Assembly (NCBI GenBank): GCA_012646105.1
Contig: GCA_012646105.1_4328.1
Direction: 5' to 3' (one strand)
Source: a phage
DNA length: 43,583 bases
This document shows positions 9,137-36,154 of this stretch, one piece after another. A program made the position numbers and the translations under genes. The notes under the pieces were generated by a model. It did not search any database, had not been told where the DNA came from, and was given only the letters and a program-made list of their open reading frames with translations. The first letter of the stretch is position 1, and every line of letters starts with the position of its first letter.

Positions 9137-9165
9137 TTGCGCACCCCAACATAATAGGATACTAT
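9137..9165 (+). promoter_or_regulatory. sigma70-like promoter TTGCGC-N17-TACTAT with embedded AATAG-N4-CTATT operator-like palindrome
   Basis: -35 at 9137-9142, -10 at 9160-9165, 40 nt upstream of ATG 9206; near-identical copies at 18181, 28837 and 29836. Confidence 0.5.
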
Positions 9166-9205
9166 TCACTTACACCAACGATGTTATCTTAAACGGGGCT
9201 ATATC

Positions 9206-9397
9206 ATGACAAGCATTACTATGTTCTTCTTAATCATTATTGTTTTAGTTTATTTTATTCCGTTTCTCGTGGCGCATATGCGCAACCATAAAGCTAAATT
9301 AGCGATATTCATGGCTAATCTGTTTCTCGGTTGGGTTCTGCTGCCGTGGGTATTTATTTTAATCTGGGCGTGCAACTCGAATGTCAAAGAGAAGTGA
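9206..9397 (+). CDS. small inner-membrane protein resembling superinfection-immunity family proteins (63 aa, 2 TM)
   Basis: two hydrophobic helices; motif VAHMRNH...AIFMANLFLGWVLLPW matches my recollection of the Imm_superinfect family; opposite strand to flanking tail genes. Confidence 0.55.
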   Translation: MTSITMFFLIIIVLVYFIPFLVAHMRNHKAKLAIFMANLFLGWVLLPWVFILIWACNSNVKEK

Positions 9398-9435
9398 GCT
9401 AGTATAGGACAAATCCTAAACACGAGGAAGTAAGC

Positions 9436-10566
9436 ATGGCCCAGAAGAAAATAACCGACGAACAGTTGCAGGAAGAATTGAACGCCGGGATGAAGAATAT
9501 CGACATCGCCCGTAAATACGGCATCTCAGACCGCGTTATTCGTATTCGTAAAGCAAAACTAGCTAAGAAAGGCGTAGGCCACGGGCGTGACGTCAGTCAC
9601 CTTGTGCCAGACGGCTACAAGATTAAAGGCACGTCGTCACTGGTGGACGAGTTCGGCAACACTAAGTTGCAATGGGTTAAGACCGACACTGACGCCGAAC
9701 GTCAGGTCGAGTTGATGAAAGCCGTAATCGAGGGCATGAAGTCAGAGATTAAACCGGTTGCGCCTGTTAAAGCGGCCCGAGCCAAACGTGACGATAAACT
9801 ACTCAATCTTTACACTGTATCTGATTTCCATCTCGGTATGCTGGCCTGGGCTGACGAGAGCGGCGACGACTGGGACATGAGGATTGCGGAAGACCTGTTC
9901 TCCCTCTGGTTCGATGCGGCGTTTCAGAAAGCGCCAGATGCAGGAACAGGGGTTATTAACCTGCTGGGCGACCTTGCGCACTTCGATAGTCTGGATGCCG
10001 TTACCCCAGCGAGCGGTCATATTCTTGACGCTGACACGCGCTACCAGAAACTGGTCCGCTACATGATTCGTATGGTCCGCCGTGTTGTCGATATGGCCCT
10101 CGTTAAGCATAAAAATGTTCGCCTGCTTATCGTGCAAGGGAACCACGACGAAAGTGGAATGATTTGGTTAGCTGAGATGTTCAGTACGCTGTACGACAAT
10201 GAGCCTCGTGTGTTCGTCGATACGTCACCGGATGTTTACAAGATGGTGCAACACGGCAAAACTACGCTGTTCTTCCATCACGGGCATAAAGCACGATTCG
10301 ACGCTATTGAACCGGTTATGATTGCCAAGTTCCGCAAAGCGTTCGGCGAAAGCGAGTACAGCTACGCCCATGTAGGGCACCTGCACCATCAGAAGATTGT
10401 AGAAAGCCGTAACATGATTGTTGAACAACACCGCACATTAGCGGCAAAAGATGCCTACGCCTCCCGCGGCGGATGGATGTCGGGCCGTAGCGCAAACGTA
10501 ATTACTTATAGCGCCGAATATGGCGAGATCGCACGTTTAACGATTTCACCGGAGATGCTGGGATGA
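9436..10566 (+). CDS. N-terminal HTH fused to calcineurin-like metallophosphoesterase (376 aa)
   Basis: HTH-like segment aa 18-45; phosphoesterase motifs D130-x-H132, G178-D179, G235-N-H-D238, H281-H-G-H284, G314-H-L-H317; RBS AGGAAG upstream. Confidence 0.7.
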   Translation: MAQKKITDEQLQEELNAGMKNIDIARKYGISDRVIRIRKAKLAKKGVGHGRDVSHLVPDGYKIKGTSSLVDEFGNTKLQWVKTDTDAERQVELMKAVIEGMKSEIKPVAPVKAARAKRDDKLLNLYTVSDFHLGMLAWADESGDDWDMRIAEDLFSLWFDAAFQKAPDAGTGVINLLGDLAHFDSLDAVTPASGHILDADTRYQKLVRYMIRMVRRVVDMALVKHKNVRLLIVQGNHDESGMIWLAEMFSTLYDNEPRVFVDTSPDVYKMVQHGKTTLFFHHGHKARFDAIEPVMIAKFRKAFGESEYSYAHVGHLHHQKIVESRNMIVEQHRTLAAKDAYASRGGWMSGRSANVITYSAEYGEIARLTISPEMLG

Positions 10567-10793
10567 CTTCAAAATACAACCGCACAATGACAAACACTCA
10601 CGGAAGCACTATGACCGTAGACGTTTATGATGTGCTACGTGCCTTCGACATCCGTGACCCTGCGCTACAGCATGCATTGAAGAAACTATTGTGCATGGGC
10701 TTGCGGGGGCACAAAGACACCGGAACCGACTTAGCGGAAGCAATTGAAAGTCTGGAGAAGTTACGGGAGTACCGGAGTAACATTGATGAGTGA
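10563..10793 (+). CDS. hypothetical protein (76 aa), translationally coupled to phosphoesterase gene
   Basis: ATGA start/stop overlap with 9436..10566. Confidence 0.5.
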   Translation: MTSKYNRTMTNTHGSTMTVDVYDVLRAFDIRDPALQHALKKLLCMGLRGHKDTGTDLAEAIESLEKLREYRSNIDE

Positions 10794-10800
10794 GGCTGTA

Positions 10801-10962
10801 ATGAAAACAATATACGTAATCCGTGTATATGATGAAGAATGGGACGAGTGGGTTGATATTTATGCCGTAGGTAGTAAGGAAGAGGCCTCTAAAGAGATGG
10901 CAGAACGGAGTGACCGAGGTCAGTTAACTAACTTCTACGAAATGCCATTTAAAAGTGAGTAA
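10801..10962 (+). CDS. small acidic hypothetical protein (53 aa; alternative ATG at 10786)
   Basis: GAGG 5 nt upstream of ATG 10801; acidic stretch DEEWDEWVD; followed by terminator hairpin. Confidence 0.45.
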   Translation: MKTIYVIRVYDEEWDEWVDIYAVGSKEEASKEMAERSDRGQLTNFYEMPFKSE

Positions 10963-10965
10963 GAA

Positions 10966-10985
10966 AAGGCCCCGAAAGGGACCTT
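10966..10985. terminator. bidirectional stem-loop terminator between plus-strand cassette and major tail gene
   Basis: AAGGCCCC-GAAA-GGGACCTT hairpin (G-U wobble on minus-strand RNA) flanked by T-rich runs on both strands. Confidence 0.5.
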
Positions 10986-10989
10986 AGTT

Positions 10990-12162
10990 TTATGCGTAGG
11001 TGATACGCTGGATAACGATAGACGACTGGTACTGATTGCCTGTGGACTGCCCTTCTATACTCTGGGTTATTGATTCCGGGCCAGATATTTCTGGGGTGAC
11101 CGCCGTAAGCTCTGCGCGTTTCAGACTAAAAGACATGGCCCCATTTACCCCCGCCAGAATAGAGTTAATCTCCACCTGCTGCTCGTTGATAAACTTCTGA
11201 ATCATCACCATGTCGTACAGCTTGCCGGAGATGGAGAAGGTATTAGCCGCGCGACCACGTTCCACGAACGCAACGCTACTGTTGCCTAGTTCGAACTGAG
11301 CAGATGCGCCGTTGTCGTTGGTGATGGTCAGAGTATCGCAACGCAACGGCGTAGAACCGTCGAACACAGACACATCTACAGATGAGAACGGCTCGTCAGT
11401 GAACGTAACCCGGGAGAAGTCGGAACCTGCTGGCGGCTCGGTGAGAATTTCCTGACTCAGACCGATGAACGGGAAGCTGCCTGTCACCATCGCGTTCACG
11501 GCCTGCTCGATAGTAAAACCGGAGATTTCCACGCCTTTGGTCAACATGTACGCGCTAGGGTTCCCGCACTGTCCTTTGAACCATGTCAGGATAGAGAACG
11601 TCTTACATGCGTTACCTGTTTCCAGTTTATCCCCGGTCTTAGCCTTACTGGTTTTTGTCTCTGTCGTCAGCGTGTGCTGAATGCCAGCGCCTGTTACTAC
11701 GAGCGCCTCGACCGCGGTCACGATAAACGGTTTTGCGTTGTCGCCGGTTAAGTCGGTGAATGCAATCAGGTCGCCAACCTCTACACCGTCAGCAATGAAG
11801 CTACCGGCAGCGCGGGTGAATGTTTTACCTGCTGGAGCGACCGTAATTTCAGCACCCGTAATCTCTACCCCATCCTGCCACGTAGAAGTCATAGCACCCG
11901 CAAGGAAATCATCCTGGCTACGTGAGCTAAGTTCGATGGCGTACTCCCCGCTAACCTGTTTGTTACCGGTGCGGATGGATGTGGTTTCTCTGCTGCCGTC
12001 GAGTTCGTTGGAAGTCAGCGCATCACGGGTTACCGCGGGAACACCGCCGGTGTTACGCAACGGCGACCATACCGGGTTACTTGGTGTTACGCCCGGGGTA
12101 ACTTCCGCCACATAGAATTGCGCGGTATTCGCGCCCTTAAAAGGAGTTGTAGCCATATTCAC
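10990..12162 (-). CDS. major tail (tube) protein (390 aa)
   Basis: size, Thr/Ser/Gly-rich beta-type composition, position upstream of chaperones, terminator directly downstream. Confidence 0.6.
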   Translation of the reverse strand: MNMATTPFKGANTAQFYVAEVTPGVTPSNPVWSPLRNTGGVPAVTRDALTSNELDGSRETTSIRTGNKQVSGEYAIELSSRSQDDFLAGAMTSTWQDGVEITGAEITVAPAGKTFTRAAGSFIADGVEVGDLIAFTDLTGDNAKPFIVTAVEALVVTGAGIQHTLTTETKTSKAKTGDKLETGNACKTFSILTWFKGQCGNPSAYMLTKGVEISGFTIEQAVNAMVTGSFPFIGLSQEILTEPPAGSDFSRVTFTDEPFSSVDVSVFDGSTPLRCDTLTITNDNGASAQFELGNSSVAFVERGRAANTFSISGKLYDMVMIQKFINEQQVEINSILAGVNGAMSFSLKRAELTAVTPEISGPESITQSIEGQSTGNQYQSSIVIQRITYA

Positions 12163-12575
12163 AGCCTCTTGGTGAATGCAATAAAGTTAATTGACAACGG
12201 CCGTTTGGCCCATCCGTTTTCTACAATCAGCGGCCCCAGGCTAACCGATTGAACCTCGGCGCAGATGTCGTTACGTGAAAATGACTTACCTGCTTTAAAC
12301 GCCGTGTTAAGTAAGTCTGCCATTTTATTGATTGGCGCGCTACCTTTCACCGATGCGTAGTTAATGTCGACCTGATAAACACCTGAGCGTTGTTCTGTGA
12401 AGAACAAATCCGCCTGTTCTGTATCCGCAAGTAACATGTAACTTGCCAGATACGGCGTGTCGGTTGACGTCGGCGCGTCGATGTTTTCAAGCGAGACCTT
12501 GATGCCGTTGGTTGTTCCGAAGGCTACCAGCGGCACATCAAATGCTTTGGTTAAGTCCTCAAAGTAGCCCATCAT
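12159..12575 (-). CDS. tail terminator / tail completion protein (position-based)
   Basis: 138 aa ORF immediately upstream of major tail gene, 4 nt overlap. Confidence 0.45.
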   Translation of the reverse strand: MMGYFEDLTKAFDVPLVAFGTTNGIKVSLENIDAPTSTDTPYLASYMLLADTEQADLFFTEQRSGVYQVDINYASVKGSAPINKMADLLNTAFKAGKSFSRNDICAEVQSVSLGPLIVENGWAKRPLSINFIAFTKRL

Positions 12576-12967
12576 TTCACCTTGTTGGCTTCTTCGTTAA
12601 TGAGTTGCTGGAAGCGGGACACATTCACCCGGACAAATCCTTGTGGCGCTTGCTGCGACCAGCCATACTCCAGCCGTTGTGCATACGGCAGATTATTTGT
12701 CAGCGTGAACTCGTGCCAGTCTGCGGCTTTCAGTACGAAACTTGTAGCGTTTCCGGTTGCCGTGTTTCCTGATTTATCGGTGGCGTCCGTAATCCCGGAA
12801 GCAGAAGTACCACCAGACGCCATCCAGTTCATACGAAAGCGGCCGGTGTCCACTGGACTAGCCTTTATGATAGCGGAAAACAGCTTGATAGACACCTGAC
12901 GCATCACCTTCTCAGGATTCTTCTTCGCCTTTTCCACGAACTTAGAGACATCAAGCGCGAAACTCAT
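12572..12967 (-). CDS. neck protein, HK97 gp10-like head-tail joining family (by recollection)
   Basis: 131 aa ORF in connector block; coupled overlaps on both sides. Confidence 0.45.
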   Translation of the reverse strand: MSFALDVSKFVEKAKKNPEKVMRQVSIKLFSAIIKASPVDTGRFRMNWMASGGTSASGITDATDKSGNTATGNATSFVLKAADWHEFTLTNNLPYAQRLEYGWSQQAPQGFVRVNVSRFQQLINEEANKVK

Positions 12968-13323: not shown

Positions 13324-13417
13324 TTTAACACCTCTTGCAGCGTCAAAAGAACACCGTAACTGTGCAAGACTACCGCGGTAAGAAAACCAAAAACTAAACC
13401 ACATGCGAACTTATTCA

Positions 13418-14008: not shown

Positions 14009-14010
14009 TT

Positions 14011-14523: not shown

Positions 14524-14526
14524 AAA

Positions 14527-14706: not shown

Positions 14707-14720
14707 GACCTTTCCTTATT

Positions 14721-17861: not shown

Positions 17862-17885
17862 GTTTCTCCTTTCTCGATAAGTAAA

Positions 17886-17905
17886 GCCCCGCCTTAAAGC
17901 GGGGC
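17886..17905 (-). other. stem-loop GCCCCGC-CTTAAA-GCGGGGC about 25 nt upstream of spanin start
   Basis: 7 bp GC stem followed by T-rich tract on minus strand; putative attenuator or terminator. Confidence 0.35.
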
Positions 17906-18180
17906 GCTAGTCCTTATCATTTAAACACAGAAACGGCGTAATCTCAGTAAATCAGTTACTTTTTACACAAGCAATAGAGTATGGCCCTTCCGGACGCGTC
18001 AGCGTAACTACACTCAGGACTTACGTCCAGCTCCGTTACCTGCCCGCGACGCGGTCGCTTGTTCATACTTCACAAGCTCAGGTGGAGCTTAGCATATTTT
18101 TAGTGAAAAGTCAACTATTCGAATAGTTTATTCCAACATTTACAATTGAGTGGAATAACTGGAATGCGTAAACAAATAGT

Positions 18181-18209
18181 TTGCATACTCCAATATAATA
18201 GGGTACTAT
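18181..18209 (+). promoter_or_regulatory. promoter TTGCAT-N17-TACTAT with embedded operator-like palindrome
   Basis: -35 at 18181-18186, -10 at 18204-18209, RBS AGGAG at 18224-18228, ATG 18237. Confidence 0.5.
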
Positions 18210-18236
18210 TCAGTTAACTTAAACAGGAGATGAGAA

Positions 18237-18758
18237 ATGGTTACTACGGTAATTACTTTCCCTGCGTATGTAGGGGCGAAAATCTGCAGGGCTAAAAACG
18301 ATGTGCGCTACTATTTGAACGCTTTTTACATAGAACCTGAGGGGTTGATAGTGTCTACGGATGGGCATAGATTGTTCTGCGACAATGTGAAGACAAACGT
18401 TGAGAAAGGGGTTCTCATTGATATCAAAGGGAGAGAGCCTTCTAAATTTAACTACGCAGAGGTAGACCACGACAACGGCAGTGTTTCTTTCTATGACGAT
18501 AGTCGCGCGCTTATATGTACACTTCCGGTAGATGTTGTAGAAGGAAACTTTCCTGACTGGAGACGCGTGGCGCACATCACACCGGGTGTTGTCGATAGTA
18601 TAGGGTTCACTCTGCGTTATTTGGCAGACGCGTACAAGATTTCTAAGGCGTACAAAAATGAAATTTCTCGTTTCGATTTCCAGGACCAAACCAGAGGATG
18701 CAAAATATCATTTTCAAACACGGCCTTTATGGTGTTAATGCCCGCGCGATTTAAATAA
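18237..18758 (+). CDS. hypothetical protein (173 aa), counter-oriented insertion in head module
   Basis: strong RBS, own promoter and terminator; no motif recognised. Confidence 0.6.
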   Translation: MVTTVITFPAYVGAKICRAKNDVRYYLNAFYIEPEGLIVSTDGHRLFCDNVKTNVEKGVLIDIKGREPSKFNYAEVDHDNGSVSFYDDSRALICTLPVDVVEGNFPDWRRVAHITPGVVDSIGFTLRYLADAYKISKAYKNEISRFDFQDQTRGCKISFSNTAFMVLMPARFK

Positions 18759-19248: not shown

Positions 19249-20324
19249 TATTCCCCTTTCAGATAATCAGCAACACGTTTATCGAGTTCCGCCATCTGCT
19301 TAAGCGTCAGCGGATTCCCGAAACCATCTACAGATATTACGCGAAACTCTTCCGGTGATATACCGCTGTTGCGGAAAATCTTACCGCGTGTCGGCCCGAG
19401 TGCTTCATCCTGAAACCATGCCGGTTGTTGTTTCAGGAACTCGTAATAGGTGGTGTCAGCGCTTACCTGAGTACCACCGTCCGCACCTTTAGCCACGCGT
19501 TTTGCGCCCTTATCGAGGAAGTCGAGCTCCGAACTGATTACAGGCGCAGTGGTGCTTCTGCACCCAAAATGGGCCGGTGGCATCGGCCCCTTACCGATTT
19601 CCCACGTCATTCCGTCTCTGGCTCTGCAAATCGTGCTGGTGCGGCTGTCCAGCGTCGACACCCACTCGTACTTCTCGATGATGTCGTCGTTCTGACGGTA
19701 CGTCTCGTTACGGGCTTCGTTGGATACGTGAGATAGCGCGGTGCGGATTACGGTGGCCGCGTTACGTTCAGAGATGTCAGCCAGTCCGCCAGCGCCTACG
19801 ACATTCTTAACAATCTGCCGTGTTGTCTGGCCCTGTACAAAGCCCATCTTAACGCCGGTTACGAGGCGCGCGACTTCGGTTTCACCCCAACCTGACATCA
19901 GCTTAGTGAAATCAACAGGCTTGTCGTTCAACGCCAGAGGTTGAAACTCGGCGGCGGCCCACACCTGTTCGACGGTAGGCGTAACAAATTCCGCGTTAAC
20001 GTTAGCGGTCAGTGTCTTTACGTTCCACTCGGCCTCATACGCCGCCAGTTCCTTAAGGTCTTCTGTCAGCTTTGTTTGCCAGTCACCTGTAAGTCCCGCC
20101 AGTGCTTCTTCGAGGTCACGTAACAGTTTATTCAGTCGCGCAGTGCTGCGACCGTCGTCACCGAATAGCAGAACCTGCCGTTTGATTTCGTCTCGCATCT
20201 CCTGAATAAACGGCGTAAGGTCTTTCACTTCGCCGGATGCGGTGCGTTGCAGCCATATCTGGTGGCTGATTAGAGATGTAAGTAAGCTCATAGATAAACC
20301 CTGTGGTGCTAAAGTTAATAGCAT
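19248..20324 (-). CDS. head morphogenesis / minor capsid protein (358 aa)
   Basis: position directly downstream of portal gene, size. Confidence 0.6.
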   Translation of the reverse strand: MLLTLAPQGLSMSLLTSLISHQIWLQRTASGEVKDLTPFIQEMRDEIKRQVLLFGDDGRSTARLNKLLRDLEEALAGLTGDWQTKLTEDLKELAAYEAEWNVKTLTANVNAEFVTPTVEQVWAAAEFQPLALNDKPVDFTKLMSGWGETEVARLVTGVKMGFVQGQTTRQIVKNVVGAGGLADISERNAATVIRTALSHVSNEARNETYRQNDDIIEKYEWVSTLDSRTSTICRARDGMTWEIGKGPMPPAHFGCRSTTAPVISSELDFLDKGAKRVAKGADGGTQVSADTTYYEFLKQQPAWFQDEALGPTRGKIFRNSGISPEEFRVISVDGFGNPLTLKQMAELDKRVADYLKGE

Positions 20325-23713: not shown

Positions 23714-23742
23714 TTATATAAGTGGATTGGGCGGGATGTACA
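23714..23742 (-). promoter_or_regulatory. candidate late-operon promoter TGTACA-N17-TATAAT
   Basis: perfect -10 TATAAT on minus strand downstream of terminator 23745-23766 and upstream of terminase small gene. Confidence 0.35.
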
Positions 23743-25748: not shown

Positions 25749-25777
25749 AATATAATAGGGTCGACGGTAATAGTCAA
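25749..25777 (-). promoter_or_regulatory. promoter TTGACT-N17-TATATT (minus strand) with operator half-site
   Basis: -35 at 25777-25772, -10 at 25754-25749, upstream of gene starting 25714. Confidence 0.4.
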
Positions 25778-25805
25778 CTAGTCATTGCAGAAATAGATAA
25801 AAAAA

Positions 25806-25830
25806 ATCCCGGCTGGGTCAGGGCCGGGAT
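25806..25830 (-). terminator. rho-independent terminator ending the lysis transcription unit
   Basis: ATCCCGGC / GCCGGGAT stem with 9 nt loop, followed by T8 run on minus strand. Confidence 0.5.
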
Positions 25831-26061
25831 AAAACTGGAGAGCAGAGGGATGGAACAGGAGGTGATTTAAGTATCGTCGGATTAGTCTCAGGTGTCAATT
25901 GGTAAAATAAAACCCGGATTCGCGGTCCGGGTTTCTGTCATAAGCCCCTGAACCCTACGCAGTCTCCACCGCTTGGGCTGCTGCTTCGGGTTTACCGGGG
26001 CTTAGTATGCGGGCACAAACAGCGTGGATGTAAGTTTACTAAACGCCTTCGTATTCGTCCA

Positions 26062-27901: not shown

Positions 27902-28101
27902 TTCTCCTGTTTACCAAGCCGCTTAGGTGAGCAGATAGCGCGTACCTCTGAATCGTTAGGCTTGTCGGCCTGAAACAGGAAGTGCGCGTTCTCTGCGGCG
28001 CGTGCCGCTGACTGGCACGCCTCCATCGAGTAAAACGTTTCTGATGCCGCCAGTTGCATCTGGCCCGCGGACAATACCCAGATAAATAAGATGCTGGTCA
28101 T
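27898..28101 (-). CDS. small secreted-type protein (signal-peptide-like N-terminus MTSILFIWVLSAGQMQLAA)
   Basis: start refined to ATG 28101; hydrophobic N-terminus; two Cys. Confidence 0.4.
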   Translation of the reverse strand: MTSILFIWVLSAGQMQLAASETFYSMEACQSAARAAENAHFLFQADKPNDSEVRAICSPKRLGKQEK

Positions 28102-28421
28102 TTGGTCGCTCCACAATTAATACATACGGCGGGAGCCTTACCATTAACGAATCGCCAGTTATGGTGGCATTCCTGGATATCGTCCTTACGGCAACCAGAT
28201 TGCTCCCGTGCGCGGATAAGTTTGTACGCCTCTACATCACCCGTAGCTTTGACCAGAGCCAGATGCAACTCCTTAATCCGCGCCGACGCATCACGTAACT
28301 GATTCTTAAGTGACTGCACCTCATGCGCCAGGTCTTCGCACTGCTGCTTGTATGGGTTGCTGTTTACTTGCTGCCGTAGTTGGTCGATCAGGTACTCGAA
28401 TACTTCGTTTTTGTTACTCAT
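28098..28421 (-). CDS. hypothetical protein with coiled coil and C-terminal zinc-ribbon-like CHHNW...CINCG (alternative start 28466)
   Basis: six-frame ORF. Confidence 0.45.
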   Translation of the reverse strand: MSNKNEVFEYLIDQLRQQVNSNPYKQQCEDLAHEVQSLKNQLRDASARIKELHLALVKATGDVEAYKLIRAREQSGCRKDDIQECHHNWRFVNGKAPAVCINCGATK

Positions 28422-28641
28422 CAGTTTCTCCCAACACCGACTCAATAATGTAAGTATGGACCGCATGGGTTAATGTGTCGCCGTATGACACGCCTGGCGT
28501 ACCAGGGATACCCGCCATCCAACGCATATCACCTTTCGACTGGCGACCTATCATGTGGATGCCGTATCTCTCTACAAGGATGTCCACCTCATCGAGAATC
28601 CCCTTGCGGCGTAACAGCGCACGTGCTTTTGCGGGGGTCAT
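28414..28641 (-). CDS. hypothetical early protein (75 aa)
   Basis: six-frame ORF. Confidence 0.45.
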   Translation of the reverse strand: MTPAKARALLRRKGILDEVDILVERYGIHMIGRQSKGDMRWMAGIPGTPGVSYGDTLTHAVHTYIIESVLGETDE

Positions 28642-28805
28642 TGCGCAACCTCATACAAAGTTTCCGGGTAACCCCATGTTGCTTTAGCAACAAGATTATT
28701 ATCACTATCAACGTATATAGACTCTGGCGTACCTGCATTAATAACCATGTGATACATAAGACCTTCTACTGTGCTGAAAAACTCATCTTTAGTTACTGCT
28801 TTCAT
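28638..28805 (-). CDS. small hypothetical protein (55 aa, MKAVTKDEFFSTVEGLMYHM...)
   Basis: hand translated; RBS AGGAG about 10 nt upstream; first gene after promoter 28837-28865. Confidence 0.45.
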   Translation of the reverse strand: MKAVTKDEFFSTVEGLMYHMVINAGTPESIYVDSDNNLVAKATWGYPETLYEVAQ

Positions 28806-28836
28806 CTTCTGTCTCTCCTCTCGTTTGTGTAAATGA

Positions 28837-28865
28837 ATAGTAGCCTATTCTATCTTAGTGTGCAA
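28837..28865 (-). promoter_or_regulatory. promoter TTGCAC-N17-TACTAT (minus strand) overlapping GAATAG-N4-CTATTC palindrome
   Basis: -35 at 28865-28860, -10 at 28842-28837. Confidence 0.5.
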
Positions 28866-28872
28866 GTAAATT

Positions 28873-29043
28873 TTATTGGTGTTTTAAATATAATCGTTCA
28901 CTGCGAATCCAGTAGTACCTCGGGCGTCGTACCCACTGACGCCATCGCATAACACGGTACTTGTTGCCGTCTGACGCAACAATAAGCCCGAATCGCTTTT
29001 CTCCGTTTCTACCGGTCCAGGTTACGATGTCATTCAGTTTCAT
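28873..29043 (-). CDS. hypothetical early protein (start refined to ATG 29043 with AGGAG RBS)
   Basis: ORF-track start 29067 is GTG without RBS. Confidence 0.45.
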   Translation of the reverse strand: MKLNDIVTWTGRNGEKRFGLIVASDGNKYRVMRWRQWVRRPRYYWIRSERLYLKHQ

Positions 29044-29114
29044 TGTTGCATCTCCTGCAATAGTCACTTCGATTGTTGCGTTTGGTGAAATAGAACAAAA
29101 ATGAGAAAAATGAT

Positions 29115-29134
29115 ACGCTGCTGTGTAGCAGCGT
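29115..29134 (-). terminator. rho-independent terminator (minus strand)
   Basis: ACGCTGCT-GTGT-AGCAGCGT 8 bp stem followed by T-rich tract on minus strand. Confidence 0.45.
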
Positions 29135-29157
29135 AAGTCACTCAGTAAAATCCCAAA

Positions 29158-29319
29158 CTATTGACCTGTTACACCACCTGTCATACCGGCACGATATTGC
29201 ACACCAGCTTTCCACGCCCGCCACGCGAGACGCGTCTTAACGTTCAGGTACTCTTTCTTCGAACCCTTGTTAACTGGCAGACCCTCGACGACGGCCCACC
29301 GTTCGAATGCTTCTCTCAT
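29158..29319 (-). CDS. small hypothetical protein (53 aa)
   Basis: hand translated (MREAFERWAVVEGLPVNKGSKKEY...); weak G-rich RBS. Confidence 0.35.
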   Translation of the reverse strand: MREAFERWAVVEGLPVNKGSKKEYLNVKTRLAWRAWKAGVQYRAGMTGGVTGQ

Positions 29320-29370
29320 ACCAACCCCCACAACGCGTGCGCCACATAAATAGCGCTGACAATTAAAATG

Positions 29371-29613
29371 TTATTCACGGCAACCTCCCTCAGAGTCGTC
29401 GGCACAAGCATCACGATTCGATGCCGCTGTGAATGAGGCTTTCAGTCCGCCATCGAATACCCCATATTCGCCGTCGCCGAACTGGTCAACTACCAACTCG
29501 CACCCTGTTTCATCTATTACATAATCGTAATCAGGTGTTGAATAACCGCTGTATGATCTTCCCGGCTTGAACCCCGATAATTTACTTTTCACGCAAATTA
29601 ATTCTTCCATCAC
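29371..29613 (-). CDS. hypothetical early protein (80 aa, acidic, Cys-containing)
   Basis: six-frame ORF, ATGA coupling. Confidence 0.5.
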   Translation of the reverse strand: MMEELICVKSKLSGFKPGRSYSGYSTPDYDYVIDETGCELVVDQFGDGEYGVFDGGLKASFTAASNRDACADDSEGGCRE

Positions 29614-29810
29614 TTCACCCCTTTGAATTTAAAATTGTTGCCAATTAATTCCAGATTATCGCGTAAGGCGAACCCGGGTTTCTTTCTTACCAGGCTCCAT
29701 ACGTCGACTATATTATCCTCGTCATACTCGTTCTCGTCCTGCAACACTATTACGTACTGCCCACCGCGTTCCGTTTTCACCAACTGACCACGTTTAAACA
29801 TAACCCTCAC
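29610..29810 (-). CDS. hypothetical early protein (66 aa; ATG at 29801 or GTG at 29810)
   Basis: first gene after promoter 29836-29864. Confidence 0.5.
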   Translation of the reverse strand: MRVMFKRGQLVKTERGGQYVIVLQDENEYDEDNIVDVWSLVRKKPGFALRDNLELIGNNFKFKGVK

Positions 29811-29835
29811 TCCTCTGTCTCGTTTCGATAAGTGA

Positions 29836-29864
29836 ATAGTAACCTATTATGTTGGGGTGTGCAA
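29836..29864 (-). promoter_or_regulatory. promoter TTGCAC-N17-TACTAT (minus strand) with embedded operator palindrome
   Basis: spacer ACCCCAACATAATAGG is almost identical to that of the 9137 promoter. Confidence 0.5.
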
Positions 29865-30296
29865 GAAAATAGTTACGTTGCCGTTGTGATTCTTTGGGGA
29901 AGGTTGTGCCTTTATTCTTATTACTTGGTAACTAAAGGGCAGGCCTTAAGCCTGCCCAATAATCGTTACATTTTTACGGTTGCGAATCTACGGCATATTA
30001 AGAAAATCAGATACTTAAGAGATATGCTGCCGATGTGAATAGAGCTTGCCCAGGGCAACCGGAGATACTTAGGAAGGAAAGTTACGATAATTCATATGTT
30101 CAGTAAGCCTGCTGCTTAACCCTTTGCTTAACGCACGGGTTAAGCATTCTTACAAGGTGAACAGGAATCAAAGTAACTAAGATATAGAAGCACCTTAAAC
30201 GAAGATTTTCATAATGTCAATAGGTGCGATTATGTTTTATTTCCCATTATTCGCAATGTATACTTGGTTTCGTTAACTGATAATGAGGGTTTGAGA

Positions 30297-30467
30297 ATGA
30301 CGCAGAATGAGGTAGCTGAGCGTATCGGGGTTACTCGTCGCACGCTGAATAACTGGTTAAAGAGTGGGAAGTTCCCTGATTGTTGTATTCGCATTATGGG
30401 CCGCCGTCAGCCAGGTACGTTCGACCCGGAGAAAGTGGAAGCGTGGATTAAGGAGAACGTGAAATGA
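30297..30467 (+). CDS. AlpA/Xis-like HTH transcriptional regulator (57 aa)
   Basis: MTQNEVAERIGVTRRTLNNWLKSGKFPD...WIKEN pattern; RBS GAGGG. Confidence 0.6.
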   Translation: MTQNEVAERIGVTRRTLNNWLKSGKFPDCCIRIMGRRQPGTFDPEKVEAWIKENVK

Positions 30468-30697
30468 CAGAGTTCCAGTCACGCGTATTTACGGCAGTCG
30501 TTTCGTTAACACGTAAAAAAGGTTCGTGCAGCGTTATCGACTTGCGCCGTAGTTATTTTAAGTACTATAGTTCAGCCATTATTGAAGGGTCGTTACGCGT
30601 GCTGGTTAAATCCGGTGTCGTGAAAAATGTTGGCGGGAAATATAGCGCCGTTGCTGAAGTGCGCGGAATGACCGCTACTTTAGAAGACCTGGAATAA
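30464..30697 (+). CDS. hypothetical protein (77 aa)
   Basis: six-frame ORF, ATGA coupling. Confidence 0.5.
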   Translation: MTEFQSRVFTAVVSLTRKKGSCSVIDLRRSYFKYYSSAIIEGSLRVLVKSGVVKNVGGKYSAVAEVRGMTATLEDLE

Positions 30698-30756
30698 AAG
30701 AAAGCCCCGACGCGGTGAACGCCGAGGCTAAATTACTTGCTGAAGGAATATACAAC

Positions 30757-32997
30757 ATGTCCGATGTAATTTTATCCTACTCGTGGTCTCGTCGCAACGC
30801 GCGGGCGGAGAAAAAGGATATAAACGTCAGAACCACACACACGGCAACACTGGACGACCTGAAAGAGTTAATCCAGCCGCTCGATGCCGTTCGCGATGGG
30901 GTTAACCTGAAGACCGCGCCCGGCTATATCACGGCCGCGTGTGACTCTACGCACAGCACCGTAAAAGACCCGGAAACAGGTGACTTTAAGCAAGCTCGTA
31001 AAGGCTTCTTCTATCGCTGTGACGCGTCTGTAAGCAAATCGTCGCTGGCATATCTGGACTTCGACAGCGCAACGCCGGAAGAGTATCAGGAAGCTGTGCG
31101 CCTGGTTAAGCGCAGCCGTAAAGCCATGTGCCTTTACACCACGGCATCACATACCGATGAGTCCCCACGCTTTCGCGTCGTCATGCCGCTGGCCCGCCCG
31201 GTCGAAGGCGGCGACATCATCCGTGTTCGCCACGGGTTGCTGGAGCATTTCTTTAAGGGCATGGGTGCTGACCGCAGCGGGTTCACTCTGTCCCAGCCTA
31301 TGTACCTGCCGCCGGTCGGCTCGCAGGTTATCTGGTCGCGTCGCAATGACCCGATTGACCCGGACGAGTTACTGGAAGGCATCCCGGATTACGAGGTGAG
31401 CAGCGCATCTGACTACCAGATACCGGAAGAACTGCGCACAGCGTTTACGGACGCGTTTGAGGCACTGGCGTTCGAGTACGGCGGCATCATGACGCCACGC
31501 GGCCTTAAGATGCCCGCCACACTAGAACACGCAGAAAACTACAGCGACCCGACGCCGCGTCCTGACGACTTCCTGCTGTGTTTCCCGCGTGAAGGATATG
31601 AAGCGCCGAACGTAACCATGATTCACGACACCGACATTACGGCAACCGAAGGCATGTCGCCGAAAGAGGTGTGGAAGTACGCGTGTGATGCTACAGGGCT
31701 TCCGTTCAGTGAAGTTGCAGAGGCTATCGGCTGGGGTGCGCGTGAATCTGTTTCATGCAGCCTCGACGACCTGGAAGACGACGATGACTCAGAGGAGGAC
31801 GAGCTACCAGAACCAGTAAAGGCTGATTTCGTCGTTGAAGGGTACATGCCGTCGGATTGCATCTGGGACATCGTCGGGGAGTCTGGTACGTATAAATCCT
31901 TCTATACGCTGGGGATGATGTACCTGAGCGCCGCCGGATACCGGTTTGCAGGGGCAGACACCCAGCGTTGCCATCACTTCTATATCGACGGTGAAGGCGG
32001 CGCAGCTACCCGCACCCGTATCGATGCGCTCACGGCTAAATATGGCGAGGAAGGTAAAGATTATGTGCATGTCATAGATATGGGCGAAGTCGGCAAGCTG
32101 AAAAACCTGATTAAGTTGATGCGTGAAACTGCTGGCGACGAGCCAATTGGCATGGTCGCGTTCGACACTCTCAACCAGACACTGGCCCTGACGATTGATA
32201 AGTTCGACGAGAACAGTTCATCAACGGCAATCGGCATGGGTAAAGTTATCGCCATCCTGAAAGAAGTACGTGACGCAACTAAAGCCGCGGTGGGCGTCGT
32301 CCACCATACACCGAAGGGCGGAAAGAAAGCCCGTGGCAGCGGGGCGCTGTATGCGGGTGTCGATGTGGAACTGACAATAGAACGTGCAACCGACCGTCAG
32401 ATAAACGTATACCACTCGAAATTTAAGCACGGGCCTCAACAGAAAACGGTTGGTATGGTGCTCGAGTCTGTACAGTTCCGTGAAGCACCACCGCCGAAAG
32501 AGTACCGTGCTGTTGAGTTCTTGGGCAGCACAGAGGAATACGGCACAATCGTAAACCTCGACCTGCCGGAACCACACAAGGCGCTTGTTCTGATGCCGTG
32601 GGGCTTCGAGCCGTTCAAAACTGACGAGGAGAAAGAGCGGGAAGAAGGGTTAACTAACGAAGGTAAACAAAAAGTAAAGGAAGAAGTTAAACGCGGCAGG
32701 GATGAAGTAAGGAAGGAGTCGATACTTTCGGCACTGGAAGACCTGCAACAGTCAGATGACACAGGTCGCGGTTTTACTCAGCAGCAGATAGTGGCCCGTT
32801 CCGGTGACTTTTCTGTGACTAACACCCATCTTGATAAAATGCTGAAAGATGGTGAACTAATGCTAGGCTGTGATGCTAATGGCGAAGTAGTACCGAGAAC
32901 GTATCGTATACCTGAAAGAATAGGGGATAGACTAAGACCGAAGACAATATACGAACCGAATGAAATGCTGGTAGTGACAGAAGAGGATTTGGAATAG
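30757..32997 (+). CDS. DNA primase / replicative helicase fusion (alternative GTG start 30715)
   Basis: C-terminal Walker A GESGTYKS and Walker B VAFDTL, N-terminal primase-like region; RBS GAAGGA. Confidence 0.7.
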   Translation: MSDVILSYSWSRRNARAEKKDINVRTTHTATLDDLKELIQPLDAVRDGVNLKTAPGYITAACDSTHSTVKDPETGDFKQARKGFFYRCDASVSKSSLAYLDFDSATPEEYQEAVRLVKRSRKAMCLYTTASHTDESPRFRVVMPLARPVEGGDIIRVRHGLLEHFFKGMGADRSGFTLSQPMYLPPVGSQVIWSRRNDPIDPDELLEGIPDYEVSSASDYQIPEELRTAFTDAFEALAFEYGGIMTPRGLKMPATLEHAENYSDPTPRPDDFLLCFPREGYEAPNVTMIHDTDITATEGMSPKEVWKYACDATGLPFSEVAEAIGWGARESVSCSLDDLEDDDDSEEDELPEPVKADFVVEGYMPSDCIWDIVGESGTYKSFYTLGMMYLSAAGYRFAGADTQRCHHFYIDGEGGAATRTRIDALTAKYGEEGKDYVHVIDMGEVGKLKNLIKLMRETAGDEPIGMVAFDTLNQTLALTIDKFDENSSSTAIGMGKVIAILKEVRDATKAAVGVVHHTPKGGKKARGSGALYAGVDVELTIERATDRQINVYHSKFKHGPQQKTVGMVLESVQFREAPPPKEYRAVEFLGSTEEYGTIVNLDLPEPHKALVLMPWGFEPFKTDEEKEREEGLTNEGKQKVKEEVKRGRDEVRKESILSALEDLQQSDDTGRGFTQQQIVARSGDFSVTNTHLDKMLKDGELMLGCDANGEVVPRTYRIPERIGDRLRPKTIYEPNEMLVVTEEDLE

Positions 32998-33016
32998 GTA
33001 AAAAAAGAAAGGGGCG

Positions 33017-33232
33017 TTAAGCCCCTTCACCGAACGCCAGCCACTTGGCGTCTACTTGCAGAACTTCCGCCAGTTTAAACAGCGTCGCCGGGCGGACGTC
33101 CTGAGTTACCCCAAGTGCAAGCTGGTTAATCGCGCCCTGGGAAACGCCGGCCAGGACAGCCAGACGGCGCTGGGAGATGCCGAGTTCTTTACGGCGTTGT
33201 TCTACACGGATGCCTAGTTCAGATGGTTGCAT
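33017..33232 (-). CDS. XRE/Cro-type HTH regulator (71 aa)
   Basis: LGISQRRLAVLAGVSQGAINQL helix-turn-helix; perfect RBS AAGGAG; divergent from plus operon. Confidence 0.7.
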   Translation of the reverse strand: MQPSELGIRVEQRRKELGISQRRLAVLAGVSQGAINQLALGVTQDVRPATLFKLAEVLQVDAKWLAFGEGA

Positions 33233-33252
33233 GTCAATTACTCCTTAGTCAG

Positions 33253-33325
33253 TTGATATGTGAATAGTACCATATTAATTATTTTAGAAAAGCCCATTGA
33301 CATGTGAATAGTTCGCTATTATAGT
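33253..33325. promoter_or_regulatory. divergent promoter/operator region with two operator palindromes
   Basis: TTGATA-N17-TAATTA and TTGACA-N17-TATAGT, each spacer containing TGTGAATAGT; leftward -10 TACTAT at 33269-33264. Confidence 0.5.
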
Positions 33326-33357
33326 TAGCCCATACCAAACGAGAGGAGAGAAACAAA

Positions 33358-33534
33358 ATGGCTAAACGTAAAGATTATGATGCTAACTGGAAAGTGTGGT
33401 TTCCCAACGTCATCCTAGAAGGACGTGGGAATGTTGAAGGTATGATTACTCAGGCATTCCGTTTCTTACCCGAAAACATGCAGAAAGACATTCTTAAAGA
33501 ACTTAACAATATCGCCGAACAGGAGAACAAATAA
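33358..33534 (+). CDS. small hypothetical protein (58 aa, MAKRKDYDANWKVWFPN...)
   Basis: hand translated; RBS AGGAG 9 nt upstream; TAATG coupling to next gene. Confidence 0.5.
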   Translation: MAKRKDYDANWKVWFPNVILEGRGNVEGMITQAFRFLPENMQKDILKELNNIAEQENK

Positions 33535-34061
33535 TGTTAGAGAAATTCTTAGTATTACTGGAACGTTTCGTAGTTGCGCATGAACTGATTGCTGCGAACA
33601 GTGTGAAACAACCGACTAATAAATCTGTAGGTGAATTGACTGTTGACGTCGCGGTAACGGGGGTAGAGACAGTTAAAAAAGAACTGGCTAAAGCACTTGA
33701 AGAAGTCGAGAAGGCGAAAGAAATCCCGGTTGAAGGTGAAGACGTCGTTGACACTAAACCGGCAGAAGATGAGAAGCCGAAACGCAAGCCTGGCAAATCA
33801 AAACCAGCCCCTAAACCTGTAGAGGAACAAACACCGGAGCCGGAAGAAGAAGTCGATTACCAGTCTCTGCGTGACCAGATTCAGGCTATCGACGATGCGA
33901 TTAACGAAGGTCCGAGCGATGCCGCGTGCGACGATTCCGATGAACTACTGGAAGAGTTCACCGGTAAGAAAATGAAGATTGCCGCGATTAAAGACGAAGA
34001 CCTGGCTGAATATCTGGAACGCCTCACGGCAATCAAGAACAAGTATTTCGAAGAAGAATAA
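33534..34061 (+). CDS. acidic hypothetical protein (175 aa)
   Basis: six-frame ORF; Glu/Asp/Pro/Lys-rich central region. Confidence 0.5.
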   Translation: MLEKFLVLLERFVVAHELIAANSVKQPTNKSVGELTVDVAVTGVETVKKELAKALEEVEKAKEIPVEGEDVVDTKPAEDEKPKRKPGKSKPAPKPVEEQTPEPEEEVDYQSLRDQIQAIDDAINEGPSDAACDDSDELLEEFTGKKMKIAAIKDEDLAEYLERLTAIKNKYFEEE

Positions 34062-34074
34062 CTACTTAACTTAT

Positions 34075-34098
34075 GGTGCCCTCGCTATTGAGGGCACC
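34075..34098 (+). other. perfect 9 bp stem-loop GGTGCCCTC-GCTATT-GAGGGCACC
   Basis: no T-run follows; possible attenuator or RNA processing site. Confidence 0.4.
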
Positions 34099-34116
34099 AA
34101 ACTGAGGGTCAGAATT

Positions 34117-34389
34117 ATGATTTACCAACTCTACCGAGCCGTAGACAGGCGGGATAGCACAGAGGCGTTATGGCTGTTGCGCGCTCCGTCCGGTGCGCAC
34201 CAGATGGAAGAGATGGCGTACTTAGGCAAAGTACCACGGCCTAAAGATATAGGCCGTCACGTGTCGCAGATTAAGCGCACGACTTTCGCCAAACCTGACT
34301 TTTATGTCTTCGAGTCGATGTATGGATGGGCGATGCATTGCCACCACCAGACACGACATTTAATTGACCAGTGGGAGAGCAGAGTATGA
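34117..34389 (+). CDS. hypothetical protein (90 aa)
   Basis: ATG 34117 with RBS GAGGG; ORF-track start 33979 overlaps upstream gene. Confidence 0.5.
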   Translation: MIYQLYRAVDRRDSTEALWLLRAPSGAHQMEEMAYLGKVPRPKDIGRHVSQIKRTTFAKPDFYVFESMYGWAMHCHHQTRHLIDQWESRV

Positions 34390-34883
34390 ATTGGCATGAA
34401 GTTTTTGACTATGACCCTGATACCGGTAAATTATTTTGGAAAATAAGTCCGTCAAAATCTGTAAAAATAGGGCAAGAAGCTGGCAGTACGAGGGAGGACA
34501 ACGACGGGAGTGAATTTAAAATACTACGTTTTAACGGGACTACTAAACTTATCCACCACGTAGTTTGGGAGATGTTTAACGGGCCGATAGCGCCGGGGGA
34601 AGTAATTCGTCATAAAAATAAAGATAGAACTGATAACAGAATAGAAAATCTTATAAAAATGCGCCGAGGTAGTATCGCACACGGCACCAACATACGGACG
34701 GACAATACTTCAGGGGTTAAAGGTGTTGGGTTTCATAAACGCTACGGTAAGTGGGTCGCGAGAATTTATGTAGACGGCAGGCCGATTTATTTAGGGGCCT
34801 ACGATAAGTTAGAGAACGCGGCTAAGGCTCGTAGGCAAGCCGAGATTAAATATGGGTTTACAGTTAACGGGGCTGAGAAATGA
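34386..34883 (+). CDS. HNH endonuclease with AP2-type DNA-binding domain (free-standing homing endonuclease)
   Basis: HHVVWEMFNGPIAPGEVIRHKNKDRTDNRIENL HNH motif; GVKGVGFHKRYGKWVARIYVDGRPIYLGAY AP2-like. Confidence 0.75.
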   Translation: MNWHEVFDYDPDTGKLFWKISPSKSVKIGQEAGSTREDNDGSEFKILRFNGTTKLIHHVVWEMFNGPIAPGEVIRHKNKDRTDNRIENLIKMRRGSIAHGTNIRTDNTSGVKGVGFHKRYGKWVARIYVDGRPIYLGAYDKLENAAKARRQAEIKYGFTVNGAEK

Positions 34884-36121
34884 TTCTAAAAGAACGCGGT
34901 GGCAATAACGATGTGCACGCCTTATTATCGCCGTCAGGTGCTAAGAAGTGGCTGACGTGCAGTGCATCACTGGCCTGTGAAAAAGATATTCCTAACACGT
35001 CTGGTAAAGCTGCCGTTACAGGGACCGCGTGTCACACCATAGCCGAGGTCCATTTAAATCAGTACATCAAAGGTACTGCGTTGCCGTTAGAGCGTGAAGT
35101 CGGTGCTTATGTGCTGGATGAGGGTAAAGGCCAGATTAAGGCGCTAATCAGTCCGATGAAAGGCGCGGTACTGATTACGGCTGATATGATTGAGCAGGTA
35201 CGCAAGTATACCGACTACTGCAAAGCGATTATCGATGTAGCGACTTACGCCAAGCTGGAAATGCGTGTCAATCTTACTGAGGTATTGCATCCCGGTTACG
35301 AAGGCGTTGGGACATTCGGAACTGCTGACCTTGTTGCCGTTCAGGAACTGGCGAACACAGACGAGCACATGCTCATTATCGGAGACCTGAAAACCGGACG
35401 GCACCGTGTCGAAGCGAAAGAAAACAAGCAGCTTATGCTTTACGCTCTCGGAGTTTATCGCCGACTCAAGAGACGTTATAACGTCACAGTTGTCCGTCTG
35501 GTCATCTTCCAGCCGTATGCTGGCGGTGCGTCAGAGTGGGATATCTCTGTTGAAGGCCTGGAACTGTTCGCTAAGTTCGCGCAGAAACGTGCGCTGTTAG
35601 CGTTAGATGCCTATTCCCGTGGCAAGAAGAACCTGAAAGCGTCAGACTTCAAGCCGTCTGTCGATGGTTGCCAGTGGTGCCGGTTCTCGGAACAATGCGC
35701 CGCACGTACAAAAACCGTTAACGCAGTACTGGTGGAAGAACTGGAAGACGACTTTGCGCTGGAACTTACGCCTGAGCAACTCGTGGCTGAGTATGAGAAG
35801 TTGCCGTTGTTGCGCCAGCACATCGATAAGGTCGAAAAAGCTATGGCTGCTGCGTTGCATTCCGGTAAGAAAGTGCCAGGGTACAAGCTGGTCGAGGGTC
35901 GTCCTGGTAATCGTGCGTGGAAAGATGCAGAGAAAGTAGCAGAACTCTACGGCGACAAGCTGACTAAAGACGTGCTCATGACGCCGACCGAAGCTGTTAA
36001 AGTAATACCGGAAGAAGAACTGAAAGACTTCATTACTCGTAAGCCAGGCGCGCCATGCGTCGCAACGGCGGACGACAAACGGCCTGAATGGAATCAGGTT
36101 AGTGAAGAAGATTTAGAATAA
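34880..36121 (+). CDS. Cas4/RecB-like PD-(D/E)xK exonuclease with Fe-S cysteines (DUF2800-like)
   Basis: GTADLV, IGDLKTGR, QLMLYA motifs; CQWCRFSEQC cysteine cluster. Confidence 0.7.
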   Translation: MILKERGGNNDVHALLSPSGAKKWLTCSASLACEKDIPNTSGKAAVTGTACHTIAEVHLNQYIKGTALPLEREVGAYVLDEGKGQIKALISPMKGAVLITADMIEQVRKYTDYCKAIIDVATYAKLEMRVNLTEVLHPGYEGVGTFGTADLVAVQELANTDEHMLIIGDLKTGRHRVEAKENKQLMLYALGVYRRLKRRYNVTVVRLVIFQPYAGGASEWDISVEGLELFAKFAQKRALLALDAYSRGKKNLKASDFKPSVDGCQWCRFSEQCAARTKTVNAVLVEELEDDFALELTPEQLVAEYEKLPLLRQHIDKVEKAMAAALHSGKKVPGYKLVEGRPGNRAWKDAEKVAELYGDKLTKDVLMTPTEAVKVIPEEELKDFITRKPGAPCVATADDKRPEWNQVSEEDLE

Positions 36122-36125
36122 AGTG

Positions 36126-36154
36126 TTGACACCTGAATAGTTAGCTATTATATT
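36126..36154 (+). promoter_or_regulatory. promoter TTGACA-N17-TATATT with TGAATAG-N4-CTATTAT operator in spacer
   Basis: consensus -35, upstream of 36208 gene. Confidence 0.5.

Follow-up and report, generated by a model that had tools for sequence, protein, structure and literature searches.

Proteins of the 434 type bind 14-bp operators in which the outer bases are conserved and the centre is free. In phage 434, such operators (ACAA-N6-TTGT) lie in OR and OL, overlap core promoter elements, and serve a lysis-lysogeny switch in which Cro has a CI partner. In the temperate phages P1 and L5, repressor sites (the C1 operators of P1 and the gp71 stoperators of L5) are scattered genome-wide over many transcription units; these sites are asymmetric, those of L5 act in transcribed regions in an orientation-dependent manner, and the proteins that bind them are lysogeny repressors. 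Here, we analyse a stretch of 43,583 nucleotides of phage DNA (contig GCA_012646105.1_4328.1 of GenBank assembly GCA_012646105.1; hereafter, the window), in which the palindrome AATAG-N4-CTATT recurs in predicted promoters. Comparison with related phages suggests that this palindrome is probably a 14-bp Cro-type operator, present in about ten predicted host sigma-70 promoters, at which a dimer of a 434-Cro-like protein would bind and repress transcription.

Judged by its sequence, the window is a Kagunavirus genome (Guernseyvirinae), that of a predicted virulent phage of Escherichia coli. Megablast of positions 28000-40000 matched 461 phage records, 340 of them named as Salmonella phages and 103 as Escherichia phages; the best matches, at 88-91% identity, are Escherichia phages and records named Kagunavirus. 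When reversed, the window is colinear with phiWAO78-1, an Escherichia phage of Kagunavirus (Guernseyvirinae). The motif itself is already published, and was attributed to a phage RNA polymerase or left unexplained. In Kagunavirus fBC-Eco01, it corresponds to seven 'phage RNA polymerase' promoters with the consensus tgAATAGTa-ccTATTat-T (PMC9825357), in Kagunavirus VB_EcoS-Golestan seven promoters were reported by PHIRE (PMC7203180), and in Jerseyvirus SGP-C the element TAATAGTACCCTATTATGTT was reported (PMC8790156). The elements of fBC-Eco01 and SGP-C are the same sequence element as the window palindrome. The papers on fBC-Eco01, Golestan and SGP-C do not describe the palindrome, its sigma-70 register, its three geometries or a link to the Cro-like gene, and, going by titles and abstracts, we identified no Guernseyvirinae transcriptome in the literature.

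The initial annotation had described a conserved promoter with an embedded palindrome at eight or more sites, and a motif search over the whole window bears this recurrence out. AATAG-N4-CTATT is present in seven exact copies, at 9153, 18197, 28836, 29835, 33307, 36136 and 39842, against 0.02 expected from shuffled sequences, and in 12 sites when one mismatch is allowed, against 1.2 expected. When all inverted repeats with 5-bp arms and gaps of 0-8 are counted, it ranks first, the runner-up having 2 copies. Every exact site is intergenic (7/7, P ~3e-8), as are four of the five one-mismatch sites (P ~2e-4), in a window whose intergenic share is 8.4%. Among the one-mismatch sites, those at 33263, 25769 and 18106 retain the identical mismatch in phiWAO78-1 and ST20; the site at 1972 falls within the tail-fibre gene and is probably a chance match, and the site at 20317 has no counterpart in ST20. 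The extended form of the element is GAATAG-N4-CTATT[A/C], and alignment of all copies to one orientation yields tGAATAGT-nnn-CTATTAT, the consensus reported with PHIRE. The copy at 28836, GAATAGTAGCCTATTC, is the only fully symmetric 16-bp one (GAATAG-N4-CTATTC). A reading of the palindrome as an RNA hairpin was rejected, as the 5-bp stems reach only -0.4 to -1.8 kcal/mol and are located upstream of the predicted starts.

The palindrome stands in fixed register with sigma-70-type -35 and -10 hexamers separated by 17-bp spacers, in three positions, and the elements that bear it are predicted to be host sigma-70-type promoters. In class A, TTGC(G/A)(C/T)-N17-TACTAT (9137 and 18181 on the plus strand, 28865 and 29864 on the minus strand), the palindrome begins 10 nt past the -35 and lies over the -10, with its centre at about -12.5 relative to the predicted start; this register confirms the earlier proposal that the palindrome overlaps the -10 at the TACTAT sites. 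In class B, TTGAC(A/G)-N17-TATAGT/TATATT (33297, 36126 and 39832, plus strand), it begins 4 nt past the -35 and fills the spacer, with its centre at about -18.5. In class C, TTGACT-N17-TATATT (25777, minus strand), it lies over the -35, which corresponds to positions 6-11 of a one-mismatch palindrome centred at about -33.5. The genes are on the GAATAG side in class A and on the TATTAT side in class B. In a scan of 20-40 kb, the sites at 33297, 36126 and 39832 top the ranking of sigma-70 matches for their strand; 33297 and 36126 match the sigma-70 hexamers at 11 of 12 positions, and 39832 and 25777 at 10 of 12.

Specifically, the class A promoter-operator at 9137..9166 (plus strand) is composed of a -35 TTGCGC (9137-9142), a 17-bp spacer, and a -10 TACTAT (9160-9165), with the palindrome AATAGGATACTATT at 9153-9166, and is predicted to drive the opposite-strand module 9206-10962. 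The site at 18181..18210 (plus strand; TTGCAT-N17-TACTAT, palindrome 18197-18210) is predicted to drive the single inserted gene 18237-18758. The two remaining class A sites are both TTGCAC-N17-TACTAT on the minus strand: 28836..28865 (promoter 28837-28865, palindrome 28836-28849) would drive small leftward genes from 28805, while 29835..29864 (promoter 29836-29864, palindrome 29835-29848) is the predicted first promoter of the leftward small-gene operon, which starts at 29810. The initial annotation had read all four as TTGCAY-N17-TACTAT, with largely correct coordinates. That pattern, found three times in the window against 0.01 expected, holds at 18181 and, on the minus strand, at 28837 and 29836, but not at 9137, whose -35 is TTGCGC; the nearly identical spacers claimed for the four sites are found between 9137 and 29836 but not at the others.

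The class B promoter-operators are all on the plus strand. The site at 33297..33325 (TTGACA-N17-TATAGT, palindrome 33307-33320 in the spacer) is predicted to drive the rightward operon from 33358, the site at 36126..36154 (TTGACA-N17-TATATT, palindrome 36136-36149) the genes for a single-stranded DNA (ssDNA)-binding protein and DNA polymerase, and the site at 39832..39860 (TTGACG-N17-TATAGT, exact palindrome at 39842-39855) the genes from 39894 on, including a methyltransferase and a helicase. The last of these sites had been missed before, as had a conserved variant at 18106-18119. An earlier grouping of 33297, 36126, 25749 and 33253 as TTGACA promoters with the palindrome in the spacer fits 33297 and 36126, both of which have an exact copy. 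It fails at the class C promoter-operator 25749..25782 (minus strand), where the -35 is TTGACT (25777..25772), the -10, 17 bp away, is TATATT (25754..25749), and the one-mismatch palindrome ACTAGTTGACTATT (25782..25769; ACTAG...CTATT) includes the -35 hexamer. This class C site is invariant across 26 Kagunavirus sequences, and Jerseyvirus SE2 has a counterpart, AATAGTTGACTAGT. The fit at 33253 is imperfect: TTGATA-N18-AATTAT matches 9 of 12 positions and carries a one-mismatch copy that fits equally well as an operator for the promoter reading leftward into the Cro-like gene.

The conserved one-mismatch variant at 18106..18119 (AATAGTTGACTTTT on the minus strand) is ambiguous as to strand. It may have class C geometry, over the -35 of a minus-strand TTGACT-N17-TAAGCT, or it may lie at +1 of a plus-strand TTCACA-N18-CATATT cassette, which in ST20 precedes the replication operon too. 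The variant lies in a 375-bp non-coding region (17862-18236) between the divergent capsid-module and inserted genes. The same region contains a perfect 16-bp palindrome, AACTATTCGAATAGTT, at about 18113-18128, with the half-sites in the opposite arrangement, and a terminator-like hairpin (17905..17886, minus strand) directly upstream of the ribosome-binding site (RBS) of the spanin gene. Several Kagunavirus relatives in IMG/VR have an extra exact site, AATAGGTTACTATT, located after tandem GGTGTAACAGG repeats and upstream of a terminator, TACGCTGCTACACAGCAGCGTA; in the corresponding place in the window (about 29139-29165, minus strand), just a degenerate left half, gtcAATAGTTTGGGATTTT, is left. 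The class A and class B leaders share a conserved leader/RBS block, (C)AAACGAGAGGAGAG, immediately 5' of the start codon, as at 28806-28830 (minus strand), 33335-33357 (plus strand) and 29811-29830 (minus strand), and the block is present in Jerseyvirus leaders too.

Gene content, operator layout and comparison with relatives point to the 434-Cro-like protein of the phage as the most likely binder of the palindrome. The gene (33017..33232, minus strand) encodes a 71-aa protein that matches HTH_3 in Pfam (E 1.2e-12), in agreement with the helix-turn-helix assigned to it earlier, and the best solved relative of this protein is 434 Cro (71 aa, E 4.9e-7), with residues 6-68 aligned to residues 4-64 of 434 Cro. 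The gene is the sole minus-strand gene within the replication block and forms a one-gene unit, with a terminator at 33028..33008. In the divergent region beside it, there are two copies of the palindrome, 44 bp apart. The perfect copy (33307-33320) is positioned in the spacer of the rightward promoter and, at the same time, over the -35 of a candidate leftward promoter, TTCACA-N16-TAAAAT (33308..33281, minus strand). The imperfect operator, AATAGTACCATATT (33263..33276), has one mismatch and overlaps a TACTAT -10 (33269..33264, minus strand); relative to the alternative promoter TTCACA-N16-TAAAAT, it is at about +1 to +12. The same two-operator divergent layout beside the regulator gene is found in Jerseyvirus, in Cornellvirus, and in two further groups of relatives, E and G.

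Compared with the 434 system, the protein has the same length, a single HTH_3 domain, and an alignment over the full length of 434 Cro. The 14-bp length and the conserved outer bases of the palindrome match the architecture of 434 operators, which are likewise inverted repeats with a variable centre, overlap core promoter elements, and lie in the divergent region beside the regulator gene, where the window has two. Unlike 434, the window phage has no CI partner and no tripartite OR/OL: two operators, not three, lie beside the Cro-like gene, and the remaining ones are single and dispersed, at about ten promoters of a virulent genome. Its half-site is AATAG with four central bases, its operators take three positions, and its binding is predicted. 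No CI-like or integrase gene is present in the annotated relatives phiWAO78-1, SE2 and ST20. With P1 C1 and mycobacteriophage L5, the proposed system shares the principle of one phage repressor acting at many dispersed sites; in contrast to theirs, the sites of the window are palindromes found in either orientation relative to transcription and within core promoters, and the phage has neither integrase nor CI. A further parallel comes from RCIP0098, a lambdoid phage that has the palindrome ACAAACAAGTTTGT (ACAA-N6-TTGT) between cI and cro and whose Cro shares 45% identity with the window protein.

Across related phages, AATAG-N4-CTATT is the top palindrome in 36 of 36 Kagunavirus IMG/VR loci, with 2-6 copies per 5-20 kb locus; of 13 Jerseyvirus loci examined, 12 have it in first or shared first place, with 2-4 copies. 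Per-site alignments were made for five sites with 26-36 orthologous sequences each, collected without requiring the motif, and for a sixth (28836) with only 4. In these alignments, there is little or no variation in half-sites, hexamers and leaders, and the columns that do vary are those of the palindrome centre and of the first 2-3 nt past the -35. This footprint suggests selection on the palindrome rather than deciding the matter, and the high conservation of intergenic DNA throughout the genus, which limits the power of footprinting, weighs against reading more into it. The conservation signal between genera is the stronger one in the sequences compared: in the promoter that precedes the gene for the ssDNA-binding protein, Kagunavirus and Jerseyvirus have the -35 and -10 hexamers and the two half-sites in common and differ in the centre and in the bases past the -35.

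More distant Guernseyvirinae-like groups, with Cro-like proteins 36-43% identical, carry sister sites AWTA[GC]-N4-[GC]TAWT in the same promoter positions, enriched ~8- to 36-fold over shuffles. There are 5-6 such sites per genome in Cornellvirus where 0.4-0.7 are expected, 3 in group E where the expectation is 0.25, and, in 12.7 kb of group G, 4 where 0.11 would be expected. The sites of group G include AATAC-N4-GTATT, in which both halves are changed and the symmetry is preserved. Together, the common register, the rank of the palindrome, the invariant half-sites and the sister motifs support the view, advanced in the initial annotation, that one operator at many promoters would define one regulon that includes the two late-region insertions.

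A recognisable Cro-like copy is found in every locus that holds the motif, and Cro homologs at 77-78% identity have the same recognition helix, VSQGAINQLALG, and the same five sites. A search for Cro proteins with this helix outside Guernseyvirinae returned just relatives on phage-sized contigs (~30-45 kb) or short fragments; the two loci examined from this search have identical gene order and the same five sites. Across groups, the symmetric G-to-C change in group G is no more than suggestive of covariation between helix and half-site. Among the 30 open reading frames (ORFs) scanned against Pfam, the regulators are the Cro-like protein, the AlpA-like protein and one weak NinH-like match, with no others.

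Several observations weigh against the Cro-type operator. The recognition helix is QGAINQ in Kagunavirus and QSLITH in Jerseyvirus, yet both genera use AATAG-N4-CTATT, and the helices of Jerseyvirus and Cornellvirus are more alike, though their motifs differ. Because a motif is shared by proteins with unlike helices, protein and motif do not co-vary cleanly, and this is the weak point in the assignment to Cro. Groups D and F have a Cro-like protein with little or no enrichment of the motif family. The flanks of the sites are asymmetric, with GAATAG on one side and CTATTAT on the other. Finally, part of each half-site doubles as a -10 hexamer, and some of the conservation is therefore owed to sigma-70 and not to a repressor.

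The initial annotation had named two candidate binders. The Cro-like one stands, being universal, homologous to 434 Cro and flanked by operators; the AlpA-like one (30297..30467, or from 30264, plus strand) does not, and we judge its gene to be outside the system. That the AlpA-like protein is a DNA-binding protein is indicated by its HTH_17 match (Pfam, E 3.3e-7; there is a weak MerR-family match as well), which upholds the earlier helix-turn-helix call. It is 80% identical between Kagunavirus and Jerseyvirus, the genera that share the motif, and was not found in Cornellvirus-like genomes, whose motif differs. That it binds the palindrome, as a repressor or as an activator, is nevertheless very unlikely. 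The complete ST20 genome has no AlpA-like gene, its best tblastn match (E 0.019) having a stop codon, yet it retains a 100% identical Cro with 6 exact and 3 variant sites. The locus L026 also lacks AlpA, and has a 98.6% identical Cro and 6 exact sites; in both, a 47-aa Cys-rich protein and a 149-aa protein stand in the place of AlpA. Since the motif is kept where AlpA is absent, the AlpA-like candidate is disfavoured. Furthermore, Kagunavirus loci with a constant motif differ in the recognition helix of this protein (VTRRTLNNWL, VTRQTINNWL, VSPMTLNRWL), and there is no full operator upstream of its gene. MerR-type activation would resemble class B in having a palindrome between the -35 and the -10, and would be in keeping with the weak MerR match; however, all spacers in the window are 17 bp rather than 19-20 bp, AlpA is dispensable for the motif, and the AlpA-like protein, judged by its length of 56-67 aa alone, is too short to hold the long C-terminal dimerisation helix of MerR proteins.

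An RNA polymerase or sigma factor of the phage's own, with the element as its promoter, is an extremely unlikely explanation. It would account for the PHIRE assignment in fBC-Eco01, where the same consensus occurs seven times (PMC9825357), and for the related element in SGP-C (PMC8790156). However, the annotations of phiWAO78-1, SE2 and ST20 include neither an RNA polymerase nor a sigma gene, and comparison with these records gives every large ORF of the window some other assignment; in the scan of 30 ORFs, there was no match to any family of RNA polymerases or sigma factors. In addition, the element can face either way relative to transcription and stands at three different distances from canonical hexamers with 17-bp spacing, an arrangement that does not suit the promoter of a single-subunit polymerase. 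We consider it quite unlikely that there is no dedicated regulator and that the palindrome consists of back-to-back -10 hexamers (TACTAT on one strand, TATTAT/TATAGT on the other) of bidirectional promoters in a copied cassette. Sites 9137 and 29836 are near-identical across ~45 bp, suggesting copying; of the four class A sites, the three in divergent regions present CTATTAT to the genes on the opposite side, and the single co-directional one (28836) has CTATTC instead; and an Rfam int-alpA RNA on the minus strand (9118..9054) is found just downstream of the reverse -10 in 9153-9166. The class B sites are harder to accommodate. Sigma-70 needs no sequence within the promoter spacer, yet the left half-site AATAG of class B, at about -25 to -21 in the spacer, is invariant across genera. 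Reverse-direction -35 candidates at class A sites match at just 3 of 6 positions, and the two-sided change to AATAC-N4-GTATT in group G keeps the symmetry. A copied cassette and binding by a repressor can, moreover, coexist.

An operator for some other factor, either an unrecognised small phage protein or a host regulator, is unlikely, although most small early ORFs have no Pfam match, leaving room for an unrecognised DNA-binding protein, and the imperfect covariation of Cro helix and motif favours such a factor. The small ORFs are mosaic between genomes. Of the regulators recognised, the Cro-like one alone is universal and has its gene next to operators. A host factor is unlikely because the motif differs between phage groups on the same hosts, changing among groups that infect E. 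coli and Salmonella alike. Sites for the host regulators CRP, ArgR and Fur, judged by their consensus sequences, were rejected for misfits in spacing or in the second half-site and for the same change of motif on the same hosts.

Under the Cro-type operator reading, a dimer of the 71-aa protein would bind the operator inside the core promoter and occlude RNA polymerase. The protein would limit its own synthesis through the imperfect copy at its own promoter and the perfect copy shared with the divergent replication operon. On accumulation, it would turn down the leftward small-gene operons, the three replication operons and the two opposite-strand insertions. Operator-free promoters, such as TGTACA-N18-TATAAT at 23742 (minus strand), upstream of the terminase small subunit gene, would stay open. 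The existence of three geometries, and of copies with one mismatch, could make the response to the protein a graded one.

We attach a low probability to a more far-reaching proposal, in which the Cro-like protein would be a genome-wide silencer that enables a carrier or pseudolysogenic state with superinfection immunity and without integrase or CI. In such a state, high occupancy would keep the genome quiet as a non-integrated episome. The proposal follows from the presence of operators on nearly every strong promoter: those of both early arms, the three replication operons and both insertions, and, over its -35, the promoter that precedes the packaging region. A carrier or pseudolysogenic-type state has been claimed for Jerseyvirus SGP-C, in a paper that describes immune 'lysogens' and regards the Cro-like gene as that of a lysogeny repressor (PMC8790156).

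The genes of the window fall into two large blocks, with structural, packaging, lysis and many small genes on the minus strand (29810 down to about 1076) and replication genes on the plus strand (30297 to about 42645). The two insertions in the late region are on the plus strand: the first (9206-10962), opposite to the surrounding genes, encodes a superinfection-immunity protein and a phosphoesterase, and the second is the single gene 18237-18758. Near the first, the int-alpA RNA match (RF02996, 9054-9118, minus strand; 36.9 bits against a gathering score of 35.8) falls in the leader of the tail-assembly-chaperone gene, ~26 nt downstream of the reverse TATTAT in the palindrome 9153-9166. Members of this RNA family are usually reported from prophages, close to integrase and alpA genes. 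Inside the replication operon, an ORF at 34371-34883 (plus strand) with HNH_3 and AP2 domains (Pfam, E 2.3e-14) is probably a homing endonuclease.

A cassette upstream of the helicase-primase gene (30264-30697 in the window, 12559-13144 in L026, and 6954-7539 in ST20, locus L086) is mosaic among Kagunavirus, being composed of the AlpA-like helix-turn-helix protein and a 77-aa protein, of an AlpA variant with another partner, or of the 47-aa Cys-rich and 149-aa proteins. Upstream of the AlpA-like/helicase-primase operon, there is a 430-bp non-coding region (29865-30296) with direct and inverted repeats and a hairpin at 29937-29957, which could be an origin or a long leader. A search of this operon for a promoter gave just a degenerate half-operator, AATAGGTGCGATTATG (about 30218), with poor -35 candidates; the half-operator is conserved and present in SE2 too.

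Close to the class C site, an operator-free promoter TTGACA-N17-GATACT (25898..25870) is followed by a predicted transcript of ~70 nt, and together they define a candidate small RNA (25793-25898, minus strand). Its 5' part is unstructured and pyrimidine-rich, with an anti-Shine-Dalgarno-like CACCUCCUGUUCCAUCCCUCUGCUCUCC, while its 3' part forms a hairpin with a U8 terminator (-13.8 kcal/mol, z -2.1). There is a weak Rfam match to 'Betaproteobacteria toxic sRNA' (25 bits, E 0.59), and the region is highly conserved in the 26 Kagunavirus sequences.

Kagunavirus and Jerseyvirus phages, to which more than 450 deposited genomes matched in this region, are widely proposed for therapy and food biocontrol. 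The regulation proposed here is of an ordinary kind and leaves the general view of phage regulation unchanged. A correct map of promoters and operators would replace the published misattribution to a 'phage RNA polymerase', and it marks probably early genes, including the superinfection-immunity insertion. The 'repressor' gene, in which some authors see a mark of lysogeny, is the probable regulator of lytic transcription. If the silencer proposal were true, phages regarded as 'strictly virulent' therapy candidates would have a carrier state with superinfection immunity. The relatives also offer a natural, compact set of predicted pairs of repressor and operator, with AATAG, AATAC or ATTAG as half-sites and with three promoter geometries, which could be tested or reused. 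The finding is of value mainly for correcting annotation and as a map of regulation, open to testing, in a large set of phages with practical applications.

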